Shown one piece after another: positions 4,451 to 42,084 of a DNA stretch of 64,000 nt. A model generated the notes under the pieces. The model searched no databases and had not been told where the DNA came from. It worked only from the letters and a program-made list of their open reading frames with translations. The position numbers were made by a program, and so were the translations under genes. How positions within the stretch are numbered: the first letter of the stretch is position 1; each line of letters begins with the position of its first letter. Source of the DNA: an uncultured Actinomycetes bacterium (GTDB lineage: Bacteria; Actinomycetota; Thermoleophilia; RBG-16-64-13); NCBI GenBank assembly GCA_963706025.1, contig CAVPLM010000011.1, forward strand, positions 64,055 through 128,054. Reading direction: 5' to 3'.

Positions 4451-4523
4451 TTCGGGGTCCGGGCTCGAACCGGGGACACCACAATCATCAGTCATGAACT
4501 CTGCCCGACCGAGCCACCACGTC
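4451..4523 (-). pseudogene. Degenerate tRNA-like sequence (probably tRNA-Phe-derived)
   Basis: Minus strand GACGTGG TG GCTC GGTCGGGCA GAGT T CATGA CTGATGA TTGTG GTGTC CCCGG TTCGAGC CCGGA. D, anticodon and T arms are recognisable, the acceptor stem does not pair, and the 3' half matches the tRNA-Phe fragments at 55883 and 60038. Confidence 0.55.
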
Positions 4524-4600: not shown

Positions 4601-6195
4601 ATGGATTCTGTCGCAGTCGTCGGGAGCGAGGTGATGTTCTTGGCGCATCAGGTCTTCTTGAGCCACGCTACGGAGGACCGGGACACGGCCCTCCAAGTCT
4701 GCGCCGCGCTCGAGCCGGAAGGGATCCGCTGCTGGATAGCACCTCGCGACGTGCCGGCGGGCACCGACTACGCCGCCGCTATCCTGGACGGCATCCGGAC
4801 CTCAGACCTTGTACTGCTTATCTTCTCCGCGCATGCCGACGCCTCCCCCTACGTTCTGCGTGAGATCGAGCGAGCCGTGGCATATAAGAGGCCGGTGCTC
4901 GCACTCCGGATAGATGACGCTGCCCTCAGTTCCTCCATCGAGTATTACGTGACCCTGTGGCGGAAGCTCGATGCATCCGCCGGGATCGACACGAAACAGG
5001 CCGAGATCGTGGCCGCCGTGCAGGCCGCGCTGGTCGCTGGGGCGCCCGCTTCAGAATCAGGGTTGAGGGCGGCAAAGCGCTCCCGCCTGCTGGGTGGTTG
5101 GAGTCGGAGGAAGAAGGCCATCGCCCTCGCTGCGGTGGCGACAGCAGTAGTGGCGATCGGCCTCGGTCTGGGGCTCGGCCTTGGTCTCGCCCAGAACCAC
5201 GGGGCCTCGGGAGCCGGCCTGACACCCGGCCAAGTGATCTGGAAGAACCTCCACCCGAAGGAACCGCTGCCTCCCGCGCGGTACCTTTCAGAGATGGTCA
5301 ATGACCCGACCAGCGGACGGCTGATCATGTTCGGTGGGGCCGTGGACACGCCGGAAGGCGGTCGGGAGCTCATCGGCGACACGTGGGCCTACGATCCTTC
5401 GGCCAACACGTGGACCGAGCTTGGCCCCTCGGGTCCCCCTTCTGCCCGTGAGGCCCCGGCAATGGCCTACGACCCGGCTACTCGCAGGGTCATCATGTTC
5501 GGTGGCGGAGAGTCCATCGACGGTACCAGCTCAGCGATACCTGGGCCTACGATCCGGCGGCCAACACCTGGGCGCAACTCAGCCCCGCAGGCCCGGCGCC
5601 GATGGGTCGAAGCGGCCACGTGATGGTCTATGATCCCCCCAGCGGCCGCATACTCATGTGGGGAGGCGCGGGGGGAGAGGGGGTCTTCTTCAATGACCTC
5701 TGGGCTTTCGACGCAACCACGAACACGTGGACCGAGCTCATACCCACAGGAGCTCTGCCTGCGGGGCGCTCCCAAGCGGCCATGGCCTACGATCCGGTCA
5801 CGCGCAGGATGATCCTCTTCGGCGGCTGGGCTGACGAGTCCGCATTCGGCGACACCTGGGCCTACGACCCGGTGGCGAACGCCTGGACCGAGCTCCAGCC
5901 TGGGGGCACGCTGCCGTCTCCGCGCTACGCGCACGAGTTGGTCTGCGACCCCTCGCGCGGGCTCCTCGTAATGTTCGGTGGTGGAGATTTCTCTCGTGAT
6001 TACAACGATACCTGGACCTACGATCCGGCGGCGAACATCTGGACCAGACTCAGCGCTCTTCACGGCGCGGCGCCCTCCCGGCGCGGGGCACACGCGATGG
6101 TCTACGACCCTTCGGGAGGACGGCTGATAGTGTTCGGGGGCGACTCGTCCGCGCACGGCATCCTCAACGACACCTGGGCCTGCACTTTTGAATGA
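4601..6195 (+). CDS. TIR domain - TM - 6-blade Kelch protein, paralog 3 (frameshifted around 5530-5600)
   Basis: HQVFLSHATED...SPYVLREIERA, then RRKK plus TM (AIALAAVATAVVAIGLGLGLGL) and six Kelch blades across ORFs 4601..5623 and 5602..6195. Confidence 0.88.
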
Positions 6196-7750
6196 CATGC
6201 CCGCCGGTAACGTCTTCCTAAGCTACACCGGGCGGGACGAAGAGGCGGCCACGCGGGTCTGCACCCTGCTCGAGGCAGACGGCATCGGGTGCTGGCTGGC
6301 TTCGCGCGACGCGACATCGAGCGAGGACAAGGCGTCCGCGACCATCGAGGCCATCCGCAGATCGGACCTCGTGCTCCTCATCTTCTCCGCTTCTGCGAAC
6401 TCATCGCCCTACGTTCTGCGTGAGATCGAAAGGGCGATCGCGTATGAGCGCCCTGTCCTTTCCATACATCTTGACGACGCCGTTCCCAACCCTTCCCTCG
6501 AGTACTACCTGAACCTGTGGCAATGGCTCGACGCCCCCGGCAGTCTCGAGGAAAGGCGGGAGGAGATCGTCGCGGCGGTTCGCCGGCAGTTGGCAGGCAC
6601 GCCCGGACCGCAACTGTTCGAGCCGGATTCACCGGCTCCGTCTGAGACCACGGAAGAGCCTGAGCCACTGCCGCCCGAGGACGTGCCGCACCCCCGTCGA
6701 CGCCGGCTCAGGACGTGGATCATCGCCTTGGCCTTGGCAGTCTTGGTGGCAGCCGTCAGCCTCGGGCTTATCCTCGGGCTGGGCGTGACGCGAGAAGGGG
6801 ACATCTGGACCGAACTCACCCCAGAGGGCGCCCGCCCGCCGCTCGCGGCGGCCACGACATGGTCCTCGACTCCTCTGCCGGTCTCCTGATAGTCTTCGGG
6901 GGGAAACGGCGCGCGCAGGAGACTTCAACGATACCTGGGCCTACGATCCGCTCGCCAACACCTGGAGCGTCCTTGCCCCGTCGGGCGCACAGCCTGAGGC
7001 ACGGTATGACCACGCGATGGCGTACGATGAGGCCACCGATCAGGTCATCATGTTCGGCGGATACAGCGGCCCCGAGGACGGTACCGGCGACTACTACGAC
7101 GACACCTGGGCGTACGACGCCAAGGCCAACGCCTGGACCAAGCTCGAGCCGTCCGGAGCAGTGCCCCCCGCTCGCGCGTACCACACCATGGCCTACGATC
7201 CGGTGACCCAGCGGACGATCATGTTCGGGGGAGCCGGGACGGAGGACGTCTTCGCCGACACCTGGGCGTACGACGCCAAGGCCAACGCCTGGACCAAGCT
7301 CGAGCCGTCCGGCGCTGTGCCCCCCGCCCGCGCGGGCCATACCATGGCGTATGACCCGGACGTGCATAGAATGATCCTGTTCGGCGGCGGCATAGTTACA
7401 ACTGCAAGACTCGACGACACCTGGGCTTACGATCCCGACCTCAAACACCTGGGTCGACCTCACCCCGGCGGGGAGCCCGCCTGCGGGTCGATTGGGTGCG
7501 GCGATGACCTATGACTCCGCCAGCGACCGAATCGTCATGTTCGGAGGGGACCGACGAAGTGGGCCTCTGCTCCGATACCTGGGCTTACGACTCGAGCAAG
7601 AACCGCTGGACCGAACTGAACTCGGAGACCCATCCCGTCCCGCGCTTCAATCTCTGCATGGCCTACGACCCTTCCACGGAACGCGTCATCATGTTCGGAG
7701 GGACCAGCCCGGGGGGCGCCCGGTCGGATACGTGGGTCTGCACACCATAG
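6188..7750 (+). CDS. TIR domain - TM - 6-blade Kelch protein, paralog 4 (frameshifted)
   Basis: NVFLSYTGRD...SPYVLREIERA, Pro/Glu linker, RRRRLRTW plus TM, and Kelch blades in ORFs 6715.., 7017..7514 and 7511..7750. The start overlaps the stop of paralog 3. Confidence 0.88.
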
Positions 7751-7881
7751 TGGGCGTCGACCGAATGAAGCATCTGAACCTTCGCACCATCTACCCCGGC
7801 CACGGGAAGCCTTTCCCCTGGTCAGAGTTTGCCGCGAAACAGTGACCGGATTGCGGCCCTAGGCTGCTCTTGCGGGCAAGC

Positions 7882-7912
<31 letters not shown>

Positions 7913-8169
7913 TATAGCCTTCCGCAAGAAACCACGAAGTGGCTCCCACCAAGATCTGGGGGGATTCCGAACCCGCGAGGGCGCGAGCGTCAGCGAGACA
8001 GTCCCTTTGGACTGTCGAACAGCGAGCGGTCCGAGCCGAGCCGGACGGCGAGGCAAGGACGGCAGCTTGCGAAGCAAGATGCGCGAATCCCCCCCTCTCC
8101 GCTTCAGAAAGCCAAGAACGGCACGTCCGGCCCGGCCCCAGGTGGCCGGGTTTTCGCGTCTTCGGGGCG

Positions 8170-8447
8170 AGTTCGGGGGCAAGTCGGGGGCAAACTCGAT
8201 AGCAGTCAAGGGACTTGGACGGACGCAAACGGACTACGCAACAGAATGGCGTCCCCTGGAACTCCGTCTTGTGAAATCCGTTGGATTGACGCAGAGTGGA
8301 ACCGGCCTATACTGAATCCATGCGGGGAGTGAGTCACTCTCCCGATTTGTAGCTCGGGGAGGCCGTGAAGACGGGGCCTTGCACGAGTTTCGACCCGCGC
8401 CTCGCTCCGTGCGGACACCGATTCTGCCCGAGGGGGAGGTGCGTCCT
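8170..8447 (+). promoter_or_regulatory. Conserved promoter + structured 5' leader module, copy A
   Basis: GGGGGCAA tandem repeat (8170-8194), TTGACG-N16-TATACT (8286-8313), hairpins and SD GGAGGTG before ATG 8448. A colinear copy lies on the minus strand at 30794-31071. Confidence 0.75.
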
Positions 8448-9482
8448 ATGAAGCCCAAAAGAAGTTTTGTGCTGGGCTTGCGTGTGCAGGTAGCGTCGAG
8501 CGTGGGCAGCCGGAGGAGGCGCATAGCTGGCCTCGCTGCGGTCCTATCGGTGCTAATACTCGTGCCGCTTATTTCGGCCTGTGGCAATCCCAAACTGTCC
8601 TATGTCTTCGTCGACGGCGACCACCAAAAATACAAACTGAGCATGGCTGTCGCCGAAAAGGGTCCGAACGGGGAAACGTTGGGAACGGTCACGCTTGAAG
8701 CCCTGCTGCATATTGATGCCAACATCGACAAACCGCATCGCTGTGCGAGTTTCGTTACGGTTGATTACGAAGACGTGAAGATAAGCACGACTGGCTCCGC
8801 CCAGAGCAGCGGGAACCAAATCCCAACAGCCTACTTCCACTTGTGCGAGGACCGTTTGCTCACTTTCAGCGGGCCAGCGCCGAGAGGTGACAACTATTCC
8901 GTCGAACTTGCGAGGACCGGTCCCAACGGTTCATTAAGCGTCATGCTGCTGAACACGCTGGTCGGCAAGTGCTTCGCACAACCGCGACGCGATTCCCTTC
9001 ACGAGTTGACGACTGGGAACGAGTGGACAACGACGCGGCAGCTTCCGGACGAATTCATGACGTATCTGTACACGGGCAAACGTCCGACTGACGACCAGAA
9101 CAGGGAAACCACGCAGGTAGAGGTGACTGGGCTGACGGGGGAAGGTGCGTTCGCGGAGTTGGCCTGGTCTTCGGTCACTCCCCTTTCGTGGCAGGTCGAC
9201 CGGACTGAAAGGCTTCTGGAGTCGGGCATGGACCCCTCGGAAATCGCTGTTCTTACCGCTGATGAGGGGGAGGCGACCATGGCGATGTCCGGTTCGCACA
9301 ATTGCTCGGGGACCGCCTTCGTTCGAACGTCAGACGGGTGGCCGCAACGAGCATCGATAGACCGGATGACCGTTGACCTCACTTCTTCGTGGGGCTACCC
9401 AGACGATCTCTCGTCGTCCGAGGAGGCTGGGCCAGTGGAAATGATTCTGGAGATTACGGGGTCAATCGAAGCGATTTCCTAG
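8448..9482 (+). CDS. Hypothetical lipoprotein
   Basis: Long ORF with a strong SD, a basic then hydrophobic signal peptide and lipobox ISAC. Confidence 0.7.
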   Translation: MKPKRSFVLGLRVQVASSVGSRRRRIAGLAAVLSVLILVPLISACGNPKLSYVFVDGDHQKYKLSMAVAEKGPNGETLGTVTLEALLHIDANIDKPHRCASFVTVDYEDVKISTTGSAQSSGNQIPTAYFHLCEDRLLTFSGPAPRGDNYSVELARTGPNGSLSVMLLNTLVGKCFAQPRRDSLHELTTGNEWTTTRQLPDEFMTYLYTGKRPTDDQNRETTQVEVTGLTGEGAFAELAWSSVTPLSWQVDRTERLLESGMDPSEIAVLTADEGEATMAMSGSHNCSGTAFVRTSDGWPQRASIDRMTVDLTSSWGYPDDLSSSEEAGPVEMILEITGSIEAIS

Positions 9483-9545: not shown

Positions 9546-9576
9546 GACGGAGGTCCTTCGGGGCCTCCGTTCTTTT
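9546..9576 (+). terminator. Intrinsic terminator hairpin (UUCG loop), repeated family
   Basis: GACGGAGGTCC TTCG GGGCCTCCGTT then CTTTT. The same hairpin occurs on the minus strand at 38466-38491 and 43277-43300. Confidence 0.7.
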
Positions 9577-29341: not shown

Positions 29342-30793
29342 GCGGTCAGGCGCCAAGGAGACGGCGTCGGGATCGGAGGTGATGACCCCGCCCAGGTTCT
29401 CCCAGCTTGACCAGGTTCCGCCGCTATATGACTTGTGCCACAGGGAATACGGCCGGACCGCGCACGAACACGTCGAGGCGGCCGATCGCCCCAAGAAGCC
29501 GCTCCCGGACCGGAGGAGAGGATTCCGCCCAGGTTCTCCCACTCTGACCAAGCGCTGCCGTTCCACGACATGTGCAGAGAGGCCGTTGTCGGTCCCGCGC
29601 GCGAAGACATCGATACGGTCGGGCCCCCAGGAAACGGCGGCGGGATCGGAGGTCAAGACTCCGCCCAGGTTCTCCCAGCCGGACCAGGACCAGTTGCTCG
29701 AAGATTCGCTGGTGCCGCTGCCGATGTTATGCCACAGGGCATTGTCGGTTCCGCGCGCGAACACGTCGACGCGGGTGGTGGTCATCATGGCCACCGCCGG
29801 GCCGGAGGTGAACGTCCCCCCCAGACTGTGAGACGCCGACCAGTTGTTCTTCCACCCCTTGTACCAGATGGCATTGTCGGTGCCGCGCCAGAAGACACCG
29901 CCCCAGACGGGACCTCGGGCCGCGGTCGCAGGATCGGAGTTGAGGACTTCTCCAACACTGGATCCCACGTGGTACCAGGTTCCGTCCTCCTGCCTCCGTC
30001 AACCAAAGGGCATCGTCGGCACCGCGGGCGAACAAGATGAGCGCGCCGCTACCCTCGGCCGGTTGTGCTCGCACACTCCCGGACCGGAGGTGAACTCTCC
30101 GCCCAGGTTCTCGAAGTGCCCGGGACCTCCGCCCTGCAAAAAGATGAGGTTGTAGAGCAGTTGGGCGCATTCCCCCCGGCTGGCGTTGGCATATGCGTTC
30201 CAGCTGTAGGAGAGGCCGTCCAGGCCGTCCAGCAGGTGATTGAACTCGGCCTTCCTGATGTTGGCCCCATGGGTGGAGTCGGAATAGTTGAGAACCCCTA
30301 CCCAATCAGCCGGGGGAGTCTCAAGATCAGCCCCACCGGCTCTCACCACCATGGTTATCACTTGTTGCCGGGTGATCTGGTTGAAGGGCCGGAAGGTATT
30401 GTCTGGATAGCCCGTGGTGAGACCGGTTCGCGCCGCGACCGCGATGTAGTTATCAGGGTAGAGCGGATCCACGGAGTCGGCGGGCAAGACATCCTTGAAG
30501 GTGCAGACGTCGGCTTCTGTCGTCTGGAAGCCCATGGTAAGGACGATCATCTTGGCGAACTGCTGCCGCTTGACCAGATCCTCCGGTCCGAAGTTGCCGT
30601 TCGCATATCCGCCGATGATGCTCCGCGCGGAGAGCTCGGTGATGGCCGATGCGTAAGGGTGGTTGGAAGGAACGTCAGGAAAGGCAGAAGCAGCAGAGGC
30701 AGGCAGGGCAAGAACGAAGCCCATCCCGAGCAGGAGTACTATCAGCGCCATTCGCAGTCTGAGCGGCGACACGGGGCTTGGCGTGGCTCTCAT
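29267..30793 (-). CDS. SLH-domain surface protein with C-terminal PLL-like/DUF346 lectin-type beta-propeller (frameshifted)
   Basis: Signal peptide, FPDVPSNHPY...GGYANGNFGP...RQQFAKMIV (SLH), then repeats WENLGGxxTSxPxAVSW..DRIDVFARGTDN. Confidence 0.82.
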
Positions 30794-31071
30794 GGAACGC
30801 ACCTCCTCCTCGGGCAGGATCGATGCCCGCACGGGGCGATGCGCCGGTGTCAACTCCAGCGAAGCCCCGTCTCCAAGGTTTCCCCGAGCTATGAATGGGG
30901 GGAGTTCCTCACTCCCCGTATAGGTTCAGTATAGGCCGGTTCCACTCTGGGTCAATCGAAACGGATGTCGATAGGTCGAGCCGTAGGAAGAGGATCCTGG
31001 TATCCGGTGTCTTCCCGTCCGTCCGCGTCCGTTCCTTATCGTCGACTTTGCCCCCGACTTGCCCCCGAACT
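30794..31071 (-). promoter_or_regulatory. Conserved promoter + structured 5' leader module, copy B
   Basis: Reverse complement contains AGTTCGGGGGCAAGTCGGGGGCAAA, TTGACC-N16-TATACT, the same hairpins and SD at the same spacings as copy A. Confidence 0.75.
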
Positions 31072-31157
31072 AGCCCGAAATGCCCGAAAACCGGGCATTC
31101 TGGGGTGGGACCATTCGCCCCCATTGCGCGTGAACTCGCCGCGGACAATCCGTCGAA

Positions 31158-31185
31158 TTGACAGCGTATTGGGCCAGCCTATACT
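31158..31185 (+). promoter_or_regulatory. Sigma70-type promoter
   Basis: TTGACA-N16-TATACT upstream of 31264. Confidence 0.65.
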
Positions 31186-31263: not shown

Positions 31264-33009
31264 GTGAAGCGGGCTAGAGTTGTCACACTGCTTGTGGCGA
31301 TCGCACTAGTGCTCCTGGGTGCCGGCGCCACGCTAGCTGCATCTGAGACCTTCATCATCGTTCAGATCACCGTCAACACCGTCACCGACCACCCTCCGAA
31401 GGTTTCAGGGGACCGCATAGTATGGACCGCCGCTCAAGGGGCGGATGGGGGATCTGACTGGGAAGTCTTCACCTGTACTCCGGCGACCGGCACTGTACAG
31501 CTGACCGAGAACAGCGACACGGATACCTACGAAGAGGTCTCGGGAGACCGAGTCGTCTGGTGCGGCAAGGGAGGAACCGATGGCGGCACCGATGATGAGA
31601 TCTTCACCTGGACTCCAGCGACCGGCATCGTTCAGCTGACGACCAATGACGACGATGACTTCGATCCGAAGCTCTCTGGAGACCGGATCGTGTGGTGTGT
31701 CAAGGAGGCTGACGGTTATGGCGATATCCTCACCTGGACCCCCCAGGGCGGCACGGTTTGGATCACCGGAAGCAAAGAACTGGGAGACCACAATCCGGCC
31801 GTCTCCGGCGACCGCGTGGTGTGGGAGGGGCAGGCCGGCCCCGGGGACATGAAGGATAGGGAGATTTACACCTGGACACCCGGCGGTGGCGTAGTCCGCA
31901 TTACCAGAAACGGCACTGACGACATCTTCGCCAGTGTCTCCGGCGACCGAGTGGTGTGGTGCGGTGACGTCCCACTAGACCTCGAGGGCGGTCTCCACAG
32001 GGGCGAGGTTTTCACCTGGACGCCTACGGGCGGCATCGTCCAGATCACGCGCTCCACCGACTATTGGTATTGGCCCCAGGTGTCCGGCGACCGTGTCGTG
32101 TGGAGTGCGCTTACAGGGATCTACACATGGACTCCCGCGGAGGGCGTTCTCCAGATCATCACTAACGACGAGTTCAAGTATGTAAACGCGTACGTCTCGG
32201 ATGATCGCGTCGTGTGGCAAAGCGAGAGCGTCGAGCCCAGCAAGAACGAGATCTTCACCTGGACACTCGCCTCGGGTACCGTGCAGATTACCAACAACAA
32301 CACCGCCGAGTACTACCCGCAGGTATCTGGCGACCGCATCGTTTGGCAGGGGCCCAGAGGCAGCGATGGTGGGTACGACTCCGAGATCTTCACTGCGACC
32401 CTGTTGCCCGAAGGACCGGCCTTCCCCGACGTACAACCCACGCACCCCTATCGTACTGCCATCAATGGAATGGCCTCCCGAGGCATCGTCGGGGGATACG
32501 CCAACGGTAATTTCGGTCCGGACGACCTGGTCATGCGTCAGCAGTTCGCCAAGATGATCGTGGGTACCTTGGGGCTCGCCGCGGCCGAGGAAGATTGGGA
32601 GGACGCCAGCAAGCCCTTCCGTGATCTGGAAGCGGACAATTTGACCAGCCTCTATCCCCATGAGTACGTGGCCTTGTGTGCCCGTAACAACATCACCAAG
32701 GGCACGATAGATCCCACCAAGTTCGCGCCCTACGACAACATCATCCGCGCTCAAGTGATCACGATGGTTGTGCGGGCCGCAGATAACCTCCGGGCAGGCA
32801 CGCTCCAACCCGTGCCCGCCGGCTGGACCGGGGTCCTTCCGGTGGGTGATCCCACGCACGGCGGCAATATCGCAAAGGCGGAGCACAGCGGCTTGCTGGT
32901 CGGCATCGTTGGACCCAGCGGCACTCTGTCCGGTTGGGATACCTACGGCAAAGCCACCCGGGGAGAGGTCGCGCAGATTCTCTGGAACCTGCTGGGGCTC
33001 ATGAACTGA
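31264..33009 (+). CDS. Secreted beta-propeller repeat protein with C-terminal SLH module
   Basis: Signal peptide, about 8 repeats of PxVSGDRVVW...EIFTWTP..G.VQIT, then FPDVQPTHPY...GGYANGNFGP...RQQFAKMIV. Confidence 0.88.
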   Translation: MKRARVVTLLVAIALVLLGAGATLAASETFIIVQITVNTVTDHPPKVSGDRIVWTAAQGADGGSDWEVFTCTPATGTVQLTENSDTDTYEEVSGDRVVWCGKGGTDGGTDDEIFTWTPATGIVQLTTNDDDDFDPKLSGDRIVWCVKEADGYGDILTWTPQGGTVWITGSKELGDHNPAVSGDRVVWEGQAGPGDMKDREIYTWTPGGGVVRITRNGTDDIFASVSGDRVVWCGDVPLDLEGGLHRGEVFTWTPTGGIVQITRSTDYWYWPQVSGDRVVWSALTGIYTWTPAEGVLQIITNDEFKYVNAYVSDDRVVWQSESVEPSKNEIFTWTLASGTVQITNNNTAEYYPQVSGDRIVWQGPRGSDGGYDSEIFTATLLPEGPAFPDVQPTHPYRTAINGMASRGIVGGYANGNFGPDDLVMRQQFAKMIVGTLGLAAAEEDWEDASKPFRDLEADNLTSLYPHEYVALCARNNITKGTIDPTKFAPYDNIIRAQVITMVVRAADNLRAGTLQPVPAGWTGVLPVGDPTHGGNIAKAEHSGLLVGIVGPSGTLSGWDTYGKATRGEVAQILWNLLGLMN

Positions 33010-39406: not shown

Positions 39407-40825
39407 TTAGAGGCGACCGCGTAGAGAGTAGCCATCCTCACTACCGAAATAGACCACCCCGTCCGACACGGCCGGGGAGCCAACCGCACCCCCCGCCTGG
39501 AACTTCCATGACTCCACGCCGCTCTGGATGTCCACTGCGTAGAGGTAGCGGTCGTCACTACCGAAAAGGACCACCACGTCTGTGACGGCCGGGGAGGGCC
39601 CGATCCACCACATATCGCCGCCGCCCGTCTTGAACTTCCACTTCTGCTGGCGGGTCTGGAGGTCCACCGCGTGGAGAGAGGCGTCCGCGCTGGTGAAATA
39701 GGCCACCCCGTTCGAGATAGCCGGGGAGGACTCGATCTTCACCCCGAAGCTTGAGCCCGTATTGAACTTCCAAAGCTCCGTGCCGCTTTGGATGTCGAGT
39801 GCATAGAGGTAGGCGTCCGATAGAAGCCCGGGCCCCAGCCCACCAAAGTAGACCACCCCGCCGGAGATGGCCGGGGAGCCAACCGCCGCATCGCCTGTCT
39901 GGAACTTCCACTTCTCCGTGCCGCTCTGGACGTCCACCGCGTAGAGGTAGGTGTCCATGCTGCCAAAGTAGACCACCCCATCGGAGACGGCCGGCAGGCC
40001 GACCGTACCCCCCGTCTGGAACTTCCACTTCTCCGTGCCGCTCTGGATGTCCAGGGCGTAGAGGTAGTTATCAAGACTACCGAAGTAGACCACTCCGTCT
40101 GCGATGGCCGGGGAGCCGACCGCACTTCCCGCCTGGAACTTCCACTTCTCCGTGCCCCTCTGGATGTCCACCGCGTAGAGGTAGGTGTCCTCACTACCGA
40201 AATAGATCACCCCGTCCGAGACGGCCGGGGAGCCAACCCGCCCGCCCGTCTGGAACTTCCACTTCTCCGTGCCGCTCTGGACGTCCACTGCGTAGAGGTA
40301 GGTGTCCTCACTACCGAAATAGATCACCCCGCCCGAGATGACCAGGGAGGAGCTAACCGGACCGCCCGTCTGGAACTTCCATACGAGTTCACCCAGTCGG
40401 CCGACGGTGGTCGTGGGAGTGGCCTGGGTGGTGGTGGTCGGCGCCTCGGTCGTAGCGGTCGCCGACGTGACCGTCGTCTCGTCTGTGATGTACACGATGG
40501 TTGTGCCTTTGCCCAGGTACTTCAAAGCCGCCAGGCTCCCGATGGCTACGGCGGCTACGAGGACGACGGCGAGGGAGGCATAGACTGCGACGCGGAGGCC
40601 GCTCGTCCGCCGACGCGGGGCGGACGCCTTCGGAGCGAACGACCGCTTGTGTTCGCCGGCCGTCGAAACAAGCTCTATCCGAGAGCCACTATCTGCACTT
40701 CTTCCTCGGTCCTTGTCTCCGACCATTCTCGCCTTCAGCATTTCCCATCCCATATCCACATCGACCGAGGGAGAGTTTCTTTCGTAGCTCTCTTGGATCA
40801 CGTCGCCCACTTGAGACTCCTTCAC
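39407..40825 (-). CDS. Putative anti-sigma factor: N-terminal cytoplasmic region, TM, Thr linker, PQQ-like beta-propeller repeats
   Basis: WKFQTGGxVGSPAxSDGVxYFGSxDxYLYAVD repeats (117-bp period); coupled to the ECF sigma stop. Confidence 0.82.
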   Translation of the reverse strand: MKESQVGDVIQESYERNSPSVDVDMGWEMLKARMVGDKDRGRSADSGSRIELVSTAGEHKRSFAPKASAPRRRTSGLRVAVYASLAVVLVAAVAIGSLAALKYLGKGTTIVYITDETTVTSATATTEAPTTTTQATPTTTVGRLGELVWKFQTGGPVSSSLVISGGVIYFGSEDTYLYAVDVQSGTEKWKFQTGGRVGSPAVSDGVIYFGSEDTYLYAVDIQRGTEKWKFQAGSAVGSPAIADGVVYFGSLDNYLYALDIQSGTEKWKFQTGGTVGLPAVSDGVVYFGSMDTYLYAVDVQSGTEKWKFQTGDAAVGSPAISGGVVYFGGLGPGLLSDAYLYALDIQSGTELWKFNTGSSFGVKIESSPAISNGVAYFTSADASLHAVDLQTRQQKWKFKTGGGDMWWIGPSPAVTDVVVLFGSDDRYLYAVDIQSGVESWKFQAGGAVGSPAVSDGVVYFGSEDGYSLRGRL

Positions 40826-41349
40826 GGCTCCACCTCGAGCTTGGCCCCCAACGTTTCCCGGGCGCGGAACAAGTGGCTCTTTATGGCTCCTTCCGAGAGA
40901 CCCATTGCCTGCGCCGTCTCCTTCTGAGAGAACCCGGCTATGTAGTGAAGAGCCGCTGCCTCCCGCCGGCGTCGGGGTAGTTCCCTAAGAGCCTCCACGA
41001 ACTCACGCTCGGGATACCAGGAGACATCATTGCCGCTCGCCGCTTCCATCACCTGGCGATCCCGAAGGCGAGCGAGACGGATGAGTCGACGCCGATAGTC
41101 GCGGCAGCGATTGAGTGCCACCCGGTAGACCCACCCCACTGGATCCTCATATGCCGACACTCGATCCCAATGCAGGTGCAGTTGGAGGAAGGCCTCTTGA
41201 GCGGCGTCAGCCGCCGTCTCGCGATCGAGAGTGATCAGACACAGCGTCTTGACCAACCGGGGATAGTAGAGGCGGAAGAGATTCTCGAGGCTTTGCCGGT
41301 CTCGATCACTCTCAACGTCGTCCCGGTGTACGGCGTCCACCTCTAGCAC
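40822..41349 (-). CDS. ECF RNA polymerase sigma factor
   Basis: AADAAQEAF...WVYRVALN (region 2) and LPRRRREAAALHY...SQKETAQAMGLSEGAIKSHLFRAR (region 4). Confidence 0.92.
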   Translation of the reverse strand: MLEVDAVHRDDVESDRDRQSLENLFRLYYPRLVKTLCLITLDRETAADAAQEAFLQLHLHWDRVSAYEDPVGWVYRVALNRCRDYRRRLIRLARLRDRQVMEAASGNDVSWYPEREFVEALRELPRRRREAAALHYIAGFSQKETAQAMGLSEGAIKSHLFRARETLGAKLEVEP

Positions 41350-41426: not shown

Positions 41427-41883
41427 GCAGCGCGAACGGCGCTATCAATCGGTCACTTCATCATGTGTCCGGCAGGGGCGCTTGAACGATCCGCTGAGCG
41501 TCCGATACCAGGTCCAAGATCTGGCGGCGATGATGCCTGGTTTGCATTCGTTTCCTCAGTCATGTTATGGGTTGAGATGCTTGAGGAACTCGAACACCAG
41601 CGTGGTGTAGGCGTTCAGACGGACCATCGGACGGCCTGGAAGGAGTCCCTCGATTATCGCTAGGTTGTCGTTTTCCGTGTGCCAGAAAGACAAGTACTCC
41701 TCGGTCTGAATCCAACCGTCACAGTCGTAGATCTCCCAGTTGGTGGACTCGAAGGCCACGATGGGGGGAATCGATTCCCTCCCGTATAGCCTGAGTATAG
41801 GCCACTTCTACTCTGCGTCAATCGGCGCAAGGGACAGCCCGAAGCGGCCGAGCTTGGCAACGTGAAGAGGTCTGGGAACCGAG

Positions 41884-42084
41884 TCACTTACTCCCCCGCC
41901 AACGGCGGGTAATCCCCGCGCCCCAATCAAGGAGGGCGTATCCCGCGACGAATAGCACAGCGGCGATGGCGAGGGTGATGAATTTGGAGGTGAAGCTACT
42001 CTCGATAGCGTAGTGGGCGATGGCAACACCCGCGCCCGCGAGGAGGAGGATTATCCCCACTATCGTCGCGACGACCTTCCGCAT
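41884..42084 (-). CDS. Small two-TM membrane protein
   Basis: MRKVVATIVGIILLLAGAG... with SD AAGGAG. Confidence 0.6.
   Translation of the reverse strand: MRKVVATIVGIILLLAGAGVAIAHYAIESSFTSKFITLAIAAVLFVAGYALLDWGAGITRRWRGSK

Follow-up and report, generated by a model that had tools for sequence, protein, structure and literature searches.

Why do two unrelated genes for surface proteins share nearly the same 330 nucleotides (nt) of upstream DNA? This question is raised by a 64,000-nt stretch of DNA (assembly GCA_963706025.1, contig CAVPLM010000011.1, positions 64,055 to 128,054; hereafter the window) from an uncultured Actinomycetes bacterium (GTDB lineage Actinomycetota; Thermoleophilia; RBG-16-64-13). 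In the initial annotation of the window, the regions upstream of a lipoprotein gene (copy A) and of an SLH-domain gene on the opposite strand (copy B) were described as two copies of one portable module, composed of a short repeat, a promoter and a structured leader, and were interpreted as an undescribed regulatory RNA and/or the end of a mobile element. The module is real and reused; however, it consists of two separate repeat families and not of one two-copy unit of 330 nt. The best explanation, to which a probability of about 0.55 is assigned, is that an attachment-site (att) flank repeat and a separately propagated, constitutive expression leader lie side by side. The genome from which the window derives (G000; 3.66 Mb in 30 contigs, 64% G+C) is 92% complete with 7% contamination.

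Alignment of positions 8100-8560 (+) with 31140-30680 (-), together with a promoter consensus scan, recovered the identical 25-mer, the promoter block and the equal spacings reported for copy A (8140-8450, +) and copy B (31100-30790, -); the coordinates of all features are listed in Table 1. The promoter blocks differ at 1 of 33 bases, and each promoter matches the consensus at 10 of 12 positions, with 0.1 promoter-like sites expected from shuffled sequences. In both copies, 91 nt separate the 25-mer from the -35 hexamer and 134 nt the -10 hexamer from the ATG; the values of 92 and 135 nt given previously reflect a counting convention. The two leaders are of equal length, and promoter plus leader are 81.8% identical between the copies over about 170 nt and 79-86% identical to four other copies in the genome. 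The weak similarity that had been seen in the first signal-peptide codons is present and fades a few codons into the genes. The proteins encoded behind the leaders, a 344-amino-acid (aa) lipobox protein and a 264-aa SLH protein, fall into separate clusters, as expected for unrelated genes, but the designation of the latter as a lectin could not be confirmed, as Pfam recognises SLH only. The resemblance of the two copies is not due to chance, since the 5' part recurs 31 times and the 3' part 8-10 times in the genome.

A search of the genome with a 311-nt query resulted in 33 matches. With split queries, the 31 copies of the 5' part (the flank) and the 8-10 copies of the promoter-leader part were found independently, and the 90-nt spacer between them recurred at only one other locus (contig C5, 685446-685539; two matches in total). 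The flank repeat is roughly 100-180 nt long, and its 31 copies align over a AGCCAAGAAYGG box, a G+C hairpin with a variable stem sequence, a TTTTCGCGTCTTT run and two GGGGGCAA boxes. Contig C8 carries 11 copies (between 41 and 91 kb), C7 six, C5 and C10 four each, C18 three, C3 one and the window contig two; the copies are clustered and co-oriented, regardless of the direction of neighbouring genes. A tRNA-Ser 3' fragment, which comprises the variable arm, the T arm and the acceptor end, lies directly upstream of 18 flank copies and is missing from the other 13. The arrays start at intact tRNA genes, namely tRNA-Ser(CGA) on C8 and C7, tRNA-Ser(UGA) on C10 and tRNA-Leu(UAA) on C5, and on C7 the flank directly follows the intact tRNA-Ser gene. 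The cargo between the flank copies is varied and accessory (extracytoplasmic function (ECF) sigma factors with BNR proteins, a radical-SAM/SPASM enzyme, a P-type ATPase, two-component systems, GNAT acetyltransferases and PIN toxin-antitoxin pairs), and integrase fragments or short integrase open reading frames (ORFs) are located near four arrays. Units of tRNA fragment and flank recur in at least 11 of the 24 family genomes searched. Long co-oriented arrays with a spacing of 0.5-6 kb were found in two relatives, with about 18 units in G001 (contig C6, 1-66572), where two integrase genes lie inside the array, and 14 in G007 (contig C6, 1341883-1369761).

Direct repeats that contain a tRNA 3' end and form co-oriented arrays with variable cargo, starting from an intact tRNA gene, are typical of att repeats, and the 25-mer, as far as can be read from the sequence, belongs to a boundary of the att type as left by stacked integrative cassettes, a structural type that is already known. 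The integrase arm-type sites of a lambda-type attP are short direct repeats, about one helical turn apart and some tens of bases from the crossover core. The GGGGGCAA boxes are arranged in a similar way, and the initial annotation, which had likened them to arm sites, pointed in the right direction in that the boxes lie in the conserved flank of a tRNA-Ser-derived att repeat; they are most likely putative protein-binding (arm-type) sites of the recombination machinery, a role that is deduced from sequence likeness. In contrast to lambda, boxes also occur without a tRNA core, namely in copy B and at C8:62495 and C8:90637 of the window's genome. At the latter two loci, the hairpin is missing as well, and each set of boxes heads a duplicated segment beside a DUF1295 gene; the boxes therefore seem able to travel alone. 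Integron attC sites are imperfect palindromes with RYYYAAC and GTTRRRY cores next to an intI gene; an attC reading of the flank was rejected, as GTTCGGG does not fit the GTTRRRY core and the repeat holds a tRNA fragment.

The promoter-leader unit has its own distribution. Eight full copies in the window's genome have all kept the promoter, the leader, the Shine-Dalgarno (SD) sequence GGAGGTG and the start codon; their leaders are 137-141 nt long when counted from the first base behind the -10 hexamer up to and including the start codon, or 134-138 nt without it. BLAST detected the unit in the own genus and in three others. With a sequence-only model, for which 21 copies were used, it was found in 29 of 61 genomes of the family, which represent 10 of 19 genera, with 1-10 matches per genome. 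In a class-wide sample, the model matched 9 of 25 genomes of the family versus 1 of 125 genomes from other families. A pattern scan of public contigs, which gives counts only among the matches listed and no distribution, yielded 80 loci, 14 of which are true leader copies according to the model; all 14 come from records labelled uncultured Actinomycetes, Actinomycetota, actinobacterium or 'bacterium'. Covariance models of Rfam 15 gave no match at the gathering score anywhere in the window; at E-values up to 10, copy A had no match at all and copy B had chance-level matches only (Yfr1 with 19.4 bits against a cut-off of 38). A literature search that covered described motifs, promoter reuse and S-layer leaders found no described motif of this kind. 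By the measure of these Rfam and literature searches, the leader is undescribed, in agreement with the initial annotation, and it is a conserved, multi-copy 5' region that stands before unrelated genes. As a propagated promoter combined with a structured 5' untranslated region (UTR), it belongs to known kinds, of which it is an undescribed member.

The genes behind the leader were analysed by calling ORFs after 81 leader matches and clustering the 61 ORFs of at least 60 aa with BLASTP, leaving out the first 35 residues of the query. They fall into 39 unrelated protein clusters. By a simple rule, signal-peptide-like starts are present in 47 of the 61 ORFs and a lipobox in 16; an MKAKK-type start motif is shared by 16 ORFs from 13 clusters. 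Pfam domains identify SLH proteins, propeller lipoproteins of the Kelch, PQQ, WD40, PD40 and RCC1 types and a beta-helix protein, and also cytoplasmic DUF3303 and SRPBCC proteins, with many ORFs belonging to no family. No metabolic theme, and no common theme besides export, emerged from the Pfam domains and clusters. The leaders in front of DUF3303 genes (L051, L053, L072, L101 and L118) form a subtype, in which P1 and P2 (see below) are kept and the 3' half differs; the SD stands in the different context GGAGGYUGCC AUG, and the gene encodes a 90-aa cytoplasmic DUF3303 protein in at least four genomes.

Could the flank and the leader nevertheless be parts of a single mobile-element end, which supplies promoter, leader and export signal to captured genes? 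The equal spacing in the two window copies, the start motif common to 13 of the 39 clusters, leader genes inside att arrays (e.g., on contig C6 of G001) and the existence of composite copies would agree with this idea. In composites, the boxes lie 120-133 nt upstream of the leader match; this is the case for six of the 81 leader matches, and a seventh was missed by the substitution-only pattern. However, all seven are confined to G000 and G001, which belong to one genus, and the other 74 leader copies have no boxes in the upstream DNA examined. As less than 200 nt of upstream DNA was covered for 33 of the 81 matches, the number of composites may be too low. Furthermore, 26 of the 31 flank copies have no leader behind them, and the genomic range of the leader, with 29 of 61 genomes, is unlike that of the flank. 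The few composites and the many leaderless flanks indicate that the composite is a local arrangement in one genus, and a single element end is unlikely. In this genus, some cassettes carry a leader-driven gene as the first feature behind the att flank, which would account for the presence of both parts, equally spaced, in the two window copies.

The structure of the leader was assessed in an alignment of 68 sequences fitted to sequence only; the G.U and A.C counts given below include every pair assigned to a helix, while the percentages for inner P2 and P3 refer to the cores of these helices. The 5' hairpin P1 (GGGGAG/CUCCCC), which begins 10-11 nt after the -10 hexamer, and the inner stem of the initial annotation, here named P3 (ACGGGGC/GCYCCGU), are kept across the homologues: P1 is paired in 88% of cells and shows two G-C to C-G swaps, and P3 is paired in 91% of cells (G.U 73, A.C 16), with compensatory cells at one pair, 58-95 (CG 21, AU 10). 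The outer stem CUCGGG/CCCGAG, in contrast, is not favoured, because it is paired in 80.9% of cells, with more A.C (32) than G.U (12) cells, and uses a strand that pairs nearer and better with CGAG in a hairpin termed P2, whose outer part (GCUCGG/CGAGY) is paired in 90.7% (G.U 46, A.C 4) and whose inner part (GGCC/GGCC) in 93.6% of cells (G.U 51, A.C 15). The outer part of P2 together with P3 would form a pseudoknot. When either fold was forced, the median difference was 2.3 kcal/mol in favour of P2, and in their minimum-energy folds, copies A and B each adopt a different one of these forms (z = -3.2 for A and -1.9 for B). Covariation among the homologues lies above that of column shuffles, which related sequences may exceed without any structure, but it is weak overall: both-sides changes were seen at 18 of the 32 pairs of one fold and at 14 of the 26 pairs of the other, with few cells involved, and controls with a slid partner equal the both-sides-changed cell count at two slides (37 at -2 and +2). 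Conservation is concentrated in the promoter, the stems and the SD, with the positions conserved in at least 90% of the sequences located on stems and SD, whereas variation is found in the loops at 16-24, 51-58, 75-79 and 97-110. The SD has an unpaired probability of 0.31 in natural leaders versus 0.26 in controls with a shuffled upstream sequence (Wilcoxon p = 0.014, natural leaders being more open). A helix that would sequester the SD was discarded owing to many non-pairs in a fixed register (P5a paired in 76.6%; A.C above G.U in P5b) and to a thermodynamic test that lent it no support, and the further candidates 67-86, 86-109 and 91-102 showed poor pairing. Subfamily signal dominated a mutual-information scan across all pairs of columns, which gave no clean helices.

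These data bear on the possibility that the leader is a regulatory switch (a riboswitch, a thermosensor or an element that responds to a protein or small RNA), which sets the translation of exported proteins. In such a switch, GGGGCC would pair either inside P2 or, as a pseudoknot, with the downstream GCYCCGU. P2 and P3 are each kept in about 91-94% of cells with G.U far above A.C, P3 has the compensatory pair, both states are within 3 kcal/mol of each other in 17 of the 53 homologues that can adopt either one, the minimum-energy folds of copies A and B differ exactly by the choice between P2 and P3, and a CUCC motif that resembles an anti-SD is conserved. Because two competing pairings are so well kept, a switch retains some probability. 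On the other hand, the stems are the conserved parts and the loops and junctions are variable, the downstream genes share only export, the SD is not more paired than in shuffles (natural leaders have the lower unpaired probability in 23 of 66 cases), the slid-partner controls match the changed-cell count and Rfam offers no match. The hallmarks of a riboswitch, that is, conserved unpaired nucleotides of a ligand pocket, a coherent gene set and an expression platform with a sequestered SD or a terminator, thus appear to be missing from the modelled leader, and the riboswitch-like reading of the initial annotation is not favoured; any switch is considered rather unlikely. It is improbable that the leader is a bistable RNA, in which hairpin and pseudoknot compete for GGGGCC and which would form a new class of sensor passed on by att-flanked cassettes. 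If true, one RNA would coordinate the exported and surface proteome across a family of uncultured Actinomycetota.

Downstream of the promoter, the conserved blocks might also serve as DNA operator sites for a transcription factor that co-regulates envelope genes. Indeed, the blocks GCTCGG, GGGGCC, GCACGAG and CCGCGC are more conserved in sequence than pairing requires, and an ATCGA-N8-TCGAT-like palindrome overlaps the -35 hexamer in copies behind an att flank. However, the strong G.U-over-A.C excess of P2 and P3 is specific to one strand and points to the RNA level, and the blocks always lie between promoter and SD in one orientation, so that operator sites are quite improbable. Finally, the 82% identity and scattered differences of the window copies might suggest an old duplication of one upstream region followed by uniform, functionless decay, the case named in the initial annotation as its own refutation, but this is highly improbable, since the same leader is kept across 10 of 19 genera, conservation is block-wise on promoter hexamers, stems and SD, similarity ends sharply inside the signal peptide and the downstream genes are unrelated.

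The preferred explanation can be summarised in the following model. The att repeat would consist of the 3' half of a tRNA-Ser gene, a hairpin with a T run, which is probably the terminator of the tRNA gene, and the two direct GGGGGCAA boxes, and small integrative cassettes would be stacked one behind another at tRNA genes, each leaving one copy of the repeat. The TTGAC-N16/17-TATACT promoter, the leader of about 134 nt and the first signal-peptide codons would form a separate unit, which this family of uncultured Actinomycetota may have spread by recombination before many unrelated genes, the majority of which encode exported proteins. A constitutive action of the leader is most likely: the mRNA would be protected by P1, a few bases from the inferred 5' end, and by a further stable hairpin, and these hairpins would engage G+C-rich sequence in pairing, which would leave the strong SD free for use and expression high and steady. 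The combination of a strong promoter, a hairpin near the predicted 5' end, a second stable hairpin and a strong, predicted accessible SD favours such a constitutive leader, and the model identifies it most likely as a propagated expression leader and not a riboswitch.

Several observations weigh against this explanation. Fourteen of the 61 downstream ORFs, including those for DUF3303 and SRPBCC proteins, do not start like a signal peptide. In P1, G.U cells are not in excess over A.C cells (22 versus 27), and the primary sequence of the stems is more conserved than pairing alone demands. The inner part of P2 and P3 share bases, are mutually exclusive and have similar energies, which would be unneeded in a simple stabiliser. 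Next to the units in the window's own genome, only integrase fragments and short ORFs, and no intact integrase gene, were seen, and the binding of protein to the GGGGGCAA boxes is a prediction from their sequence. In one metatranscriptome run, a single contig of 236 nt with 13 differences lies inside the lipoprotein gene and shows neither a transcription start nor transcription of the leader.

The components of this arrangement have counterparts in known systems. Tandem accretion at att sites has a parallel in Dehalococcoides, where ssrA islands are reportedly built in this way. Tandem accretion at tRNA att sites also gives rise to integrase-less derivatives, the cis-mobilizable elements (CIMEs; reviewed in PMC5704250). 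In these systems, direct repeats of a tRNA 3' end likewise bound integrase-less packets of genes stacked behind the intact gene; in contrast, the long repeat described here combines the tRNA fragment with about 100 nt of conserved flank that includes a hairpin and two boxes, and the units, at 0.4-6 kb, are small and occur in large numbers, with up to about 18 in tandem in a relative. The leader resembles the putative mobile promoters (PMPs) of Matus-Garcia, Nijveen and van Passel (2012), which are described in a commentary (PMC3575422) as highly similar upstream DNA segments before unrelated coding sequences of the same genome, shared between genera, with at least 80% identity over at least 50 nt; some carry RNA motifs, and their movement is left open there. 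With 81.8% identity over about 170 nt and mature proteins in different BLASTP clusters, copies A and B lie within this definition. They differ from PMPs in that the unit spans the -35 hexamer through the 134-nt leader into the first signal-peptide codons, and that up to 10 copies occur per genome, some of which ride on att-flanked cassettes. Long 5' UTRs stabilise S-layer mRNAs such as that of slpA of Lactobacillus acidophilus (reviewed in PMC3666127). In both systems, surface proteins, abundant ones in the S-layer case, are preceded by a strong promoter, a stably structured long leader and a strong SD, and some of the genes here encode SLH proteins; the sequences are unrelated, however, and one leader serves dozens of unrelated genes, some of them cytoplasmic. 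A stabilising role would be assigned here by analogy.

Table 1. Features of the two promoter-leader copies and of a partial third copy in the window
Feature	Position	Strand	Remarks
tRNA-Ser 3' fragment, 54 nt (variable arm, T arm, acceptor end)	7859..7912	+	att scar without boxes behind; from sequence reading and local T-arm matches; matches query positions 41-73; no whole tRNA found at this position, only the 3' fragment
Inverted copy of tRNA T arm	near 7957-7975		one extra base; between the two tRNA-Ser fragments
Second, truncated tRNA-Ser 3' end	8085..8101	+	last 17 nt; flank directly after
Conserved att flank, copy A	8102..8199	+	CTTCAGAA, AGCCAAGAAYGG box, G+C hairpin with TTTT, two GGGGGCAA boxes
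Flank hairpin stem, copy A	8131-8137 with 8144-8150	+
25-mer, copy A	8170-8194	+	holds the two GGGGGCAA boxes
Spacer with GGACGGACG-type motif	8195..8285	+	well conserved only versus the C5 locus of G000
Sigma-70-type promoter TTGACG-16-TATACT, copy A	8286..8313	+	kept in all aligned homologues
5' leader, copy A	8320..8447	+	transcription start inferred near 8320
P1 hairpin	8324-8344	+
P2 hairpin	8352-8388	+
Alternative P3	8371-8377 with 8404-8410	+
SD GGGGAGGTG	8433-8441	+
Putative lipoprotein gene, 344 aa	8448..9482	+	ATG at 8448; lipobox LISAC; no Pfam family
Flank, copy B	31047..31096	-	25-mer (31071-31047) identical to that of copy A, preceded by a different small hairpin with T run (31096-31082); tRNA fragment and AGCCAAGAA box absent
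Promoter TTGACC-16-TATACT, copy B	30928..30955	-
Leader, copy B	30794..30927	-	scores 104.1 bits
SLH-domain protein gene, 264 aa	29999..30793	-	ATG at 30793; signal peptide
Third, partial copy	41762..41821	-	promoter and P1 hairpin only; runs straight into a 64-aa ORF

Copy A is part of a solitary scar, in which the 54-nt tRNA fragment, the inverted T-arm piece and the 17-nt tRNA end are followed by the flank; the inverted piece suggests a further rearrangement. The depth of metagenome contigs piles up over 7738-8271, which is expected of a repeat. In one of these contigs, 8199 is joined to 9773, with promoter, leader and gene skipped, but it was not counted because just 36 nt fit past the joint. 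Just upstream of the scar, beside a tRNA-Ile gene (4451-4522), four adjacent ORFs of 340, 197, 233 and 165 aa (4601-7842) encode TIR_2 and Kelch-repeat domains and look like one or two TIR-Kelch genes in pieces. Behind the lipoprotein gene, a terminator-like hairpin, ACGGAGGTCC TTCG GGGCCTCCGT with a T run, is located at 9546-9575; a nearly identical hairpin is found at about 46250-46300 on contig C8 of G000, before the flank copy C8:46333, and this hairpin may represent a further family of small repeats. A 581-aa SLH gene (31264-33009), which lies back to back with copy B, is preceded by a divergent promoter-like site (TTGACA-16-TATACT, 11 of 12 positions; 31158-31185, +). The 64-aa ORF behind the partial third copy is located upstream of an ECF-sigma-like gene (40822-41349), and another P1-like fragment lies nearby at about 41880-41897.

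The window illustrates that what looks like one striking "module" in a single stretch of DNA can turn out to be a pair of overlapping repeat families. The leader is a candidate for an RNA family entry of its own, and it might serve as a part for strong expression in G+C-rich hosts. For the family, it provides a testable case of a ready-made head for expression and export, made up of promoter, stable leader, strong SD and signal-peptide start, that would spread to unrelated genes in a lineage known only from metagenomes, and in at least one genus this spread would be tied to small cassettes stacked at tRNA genes.

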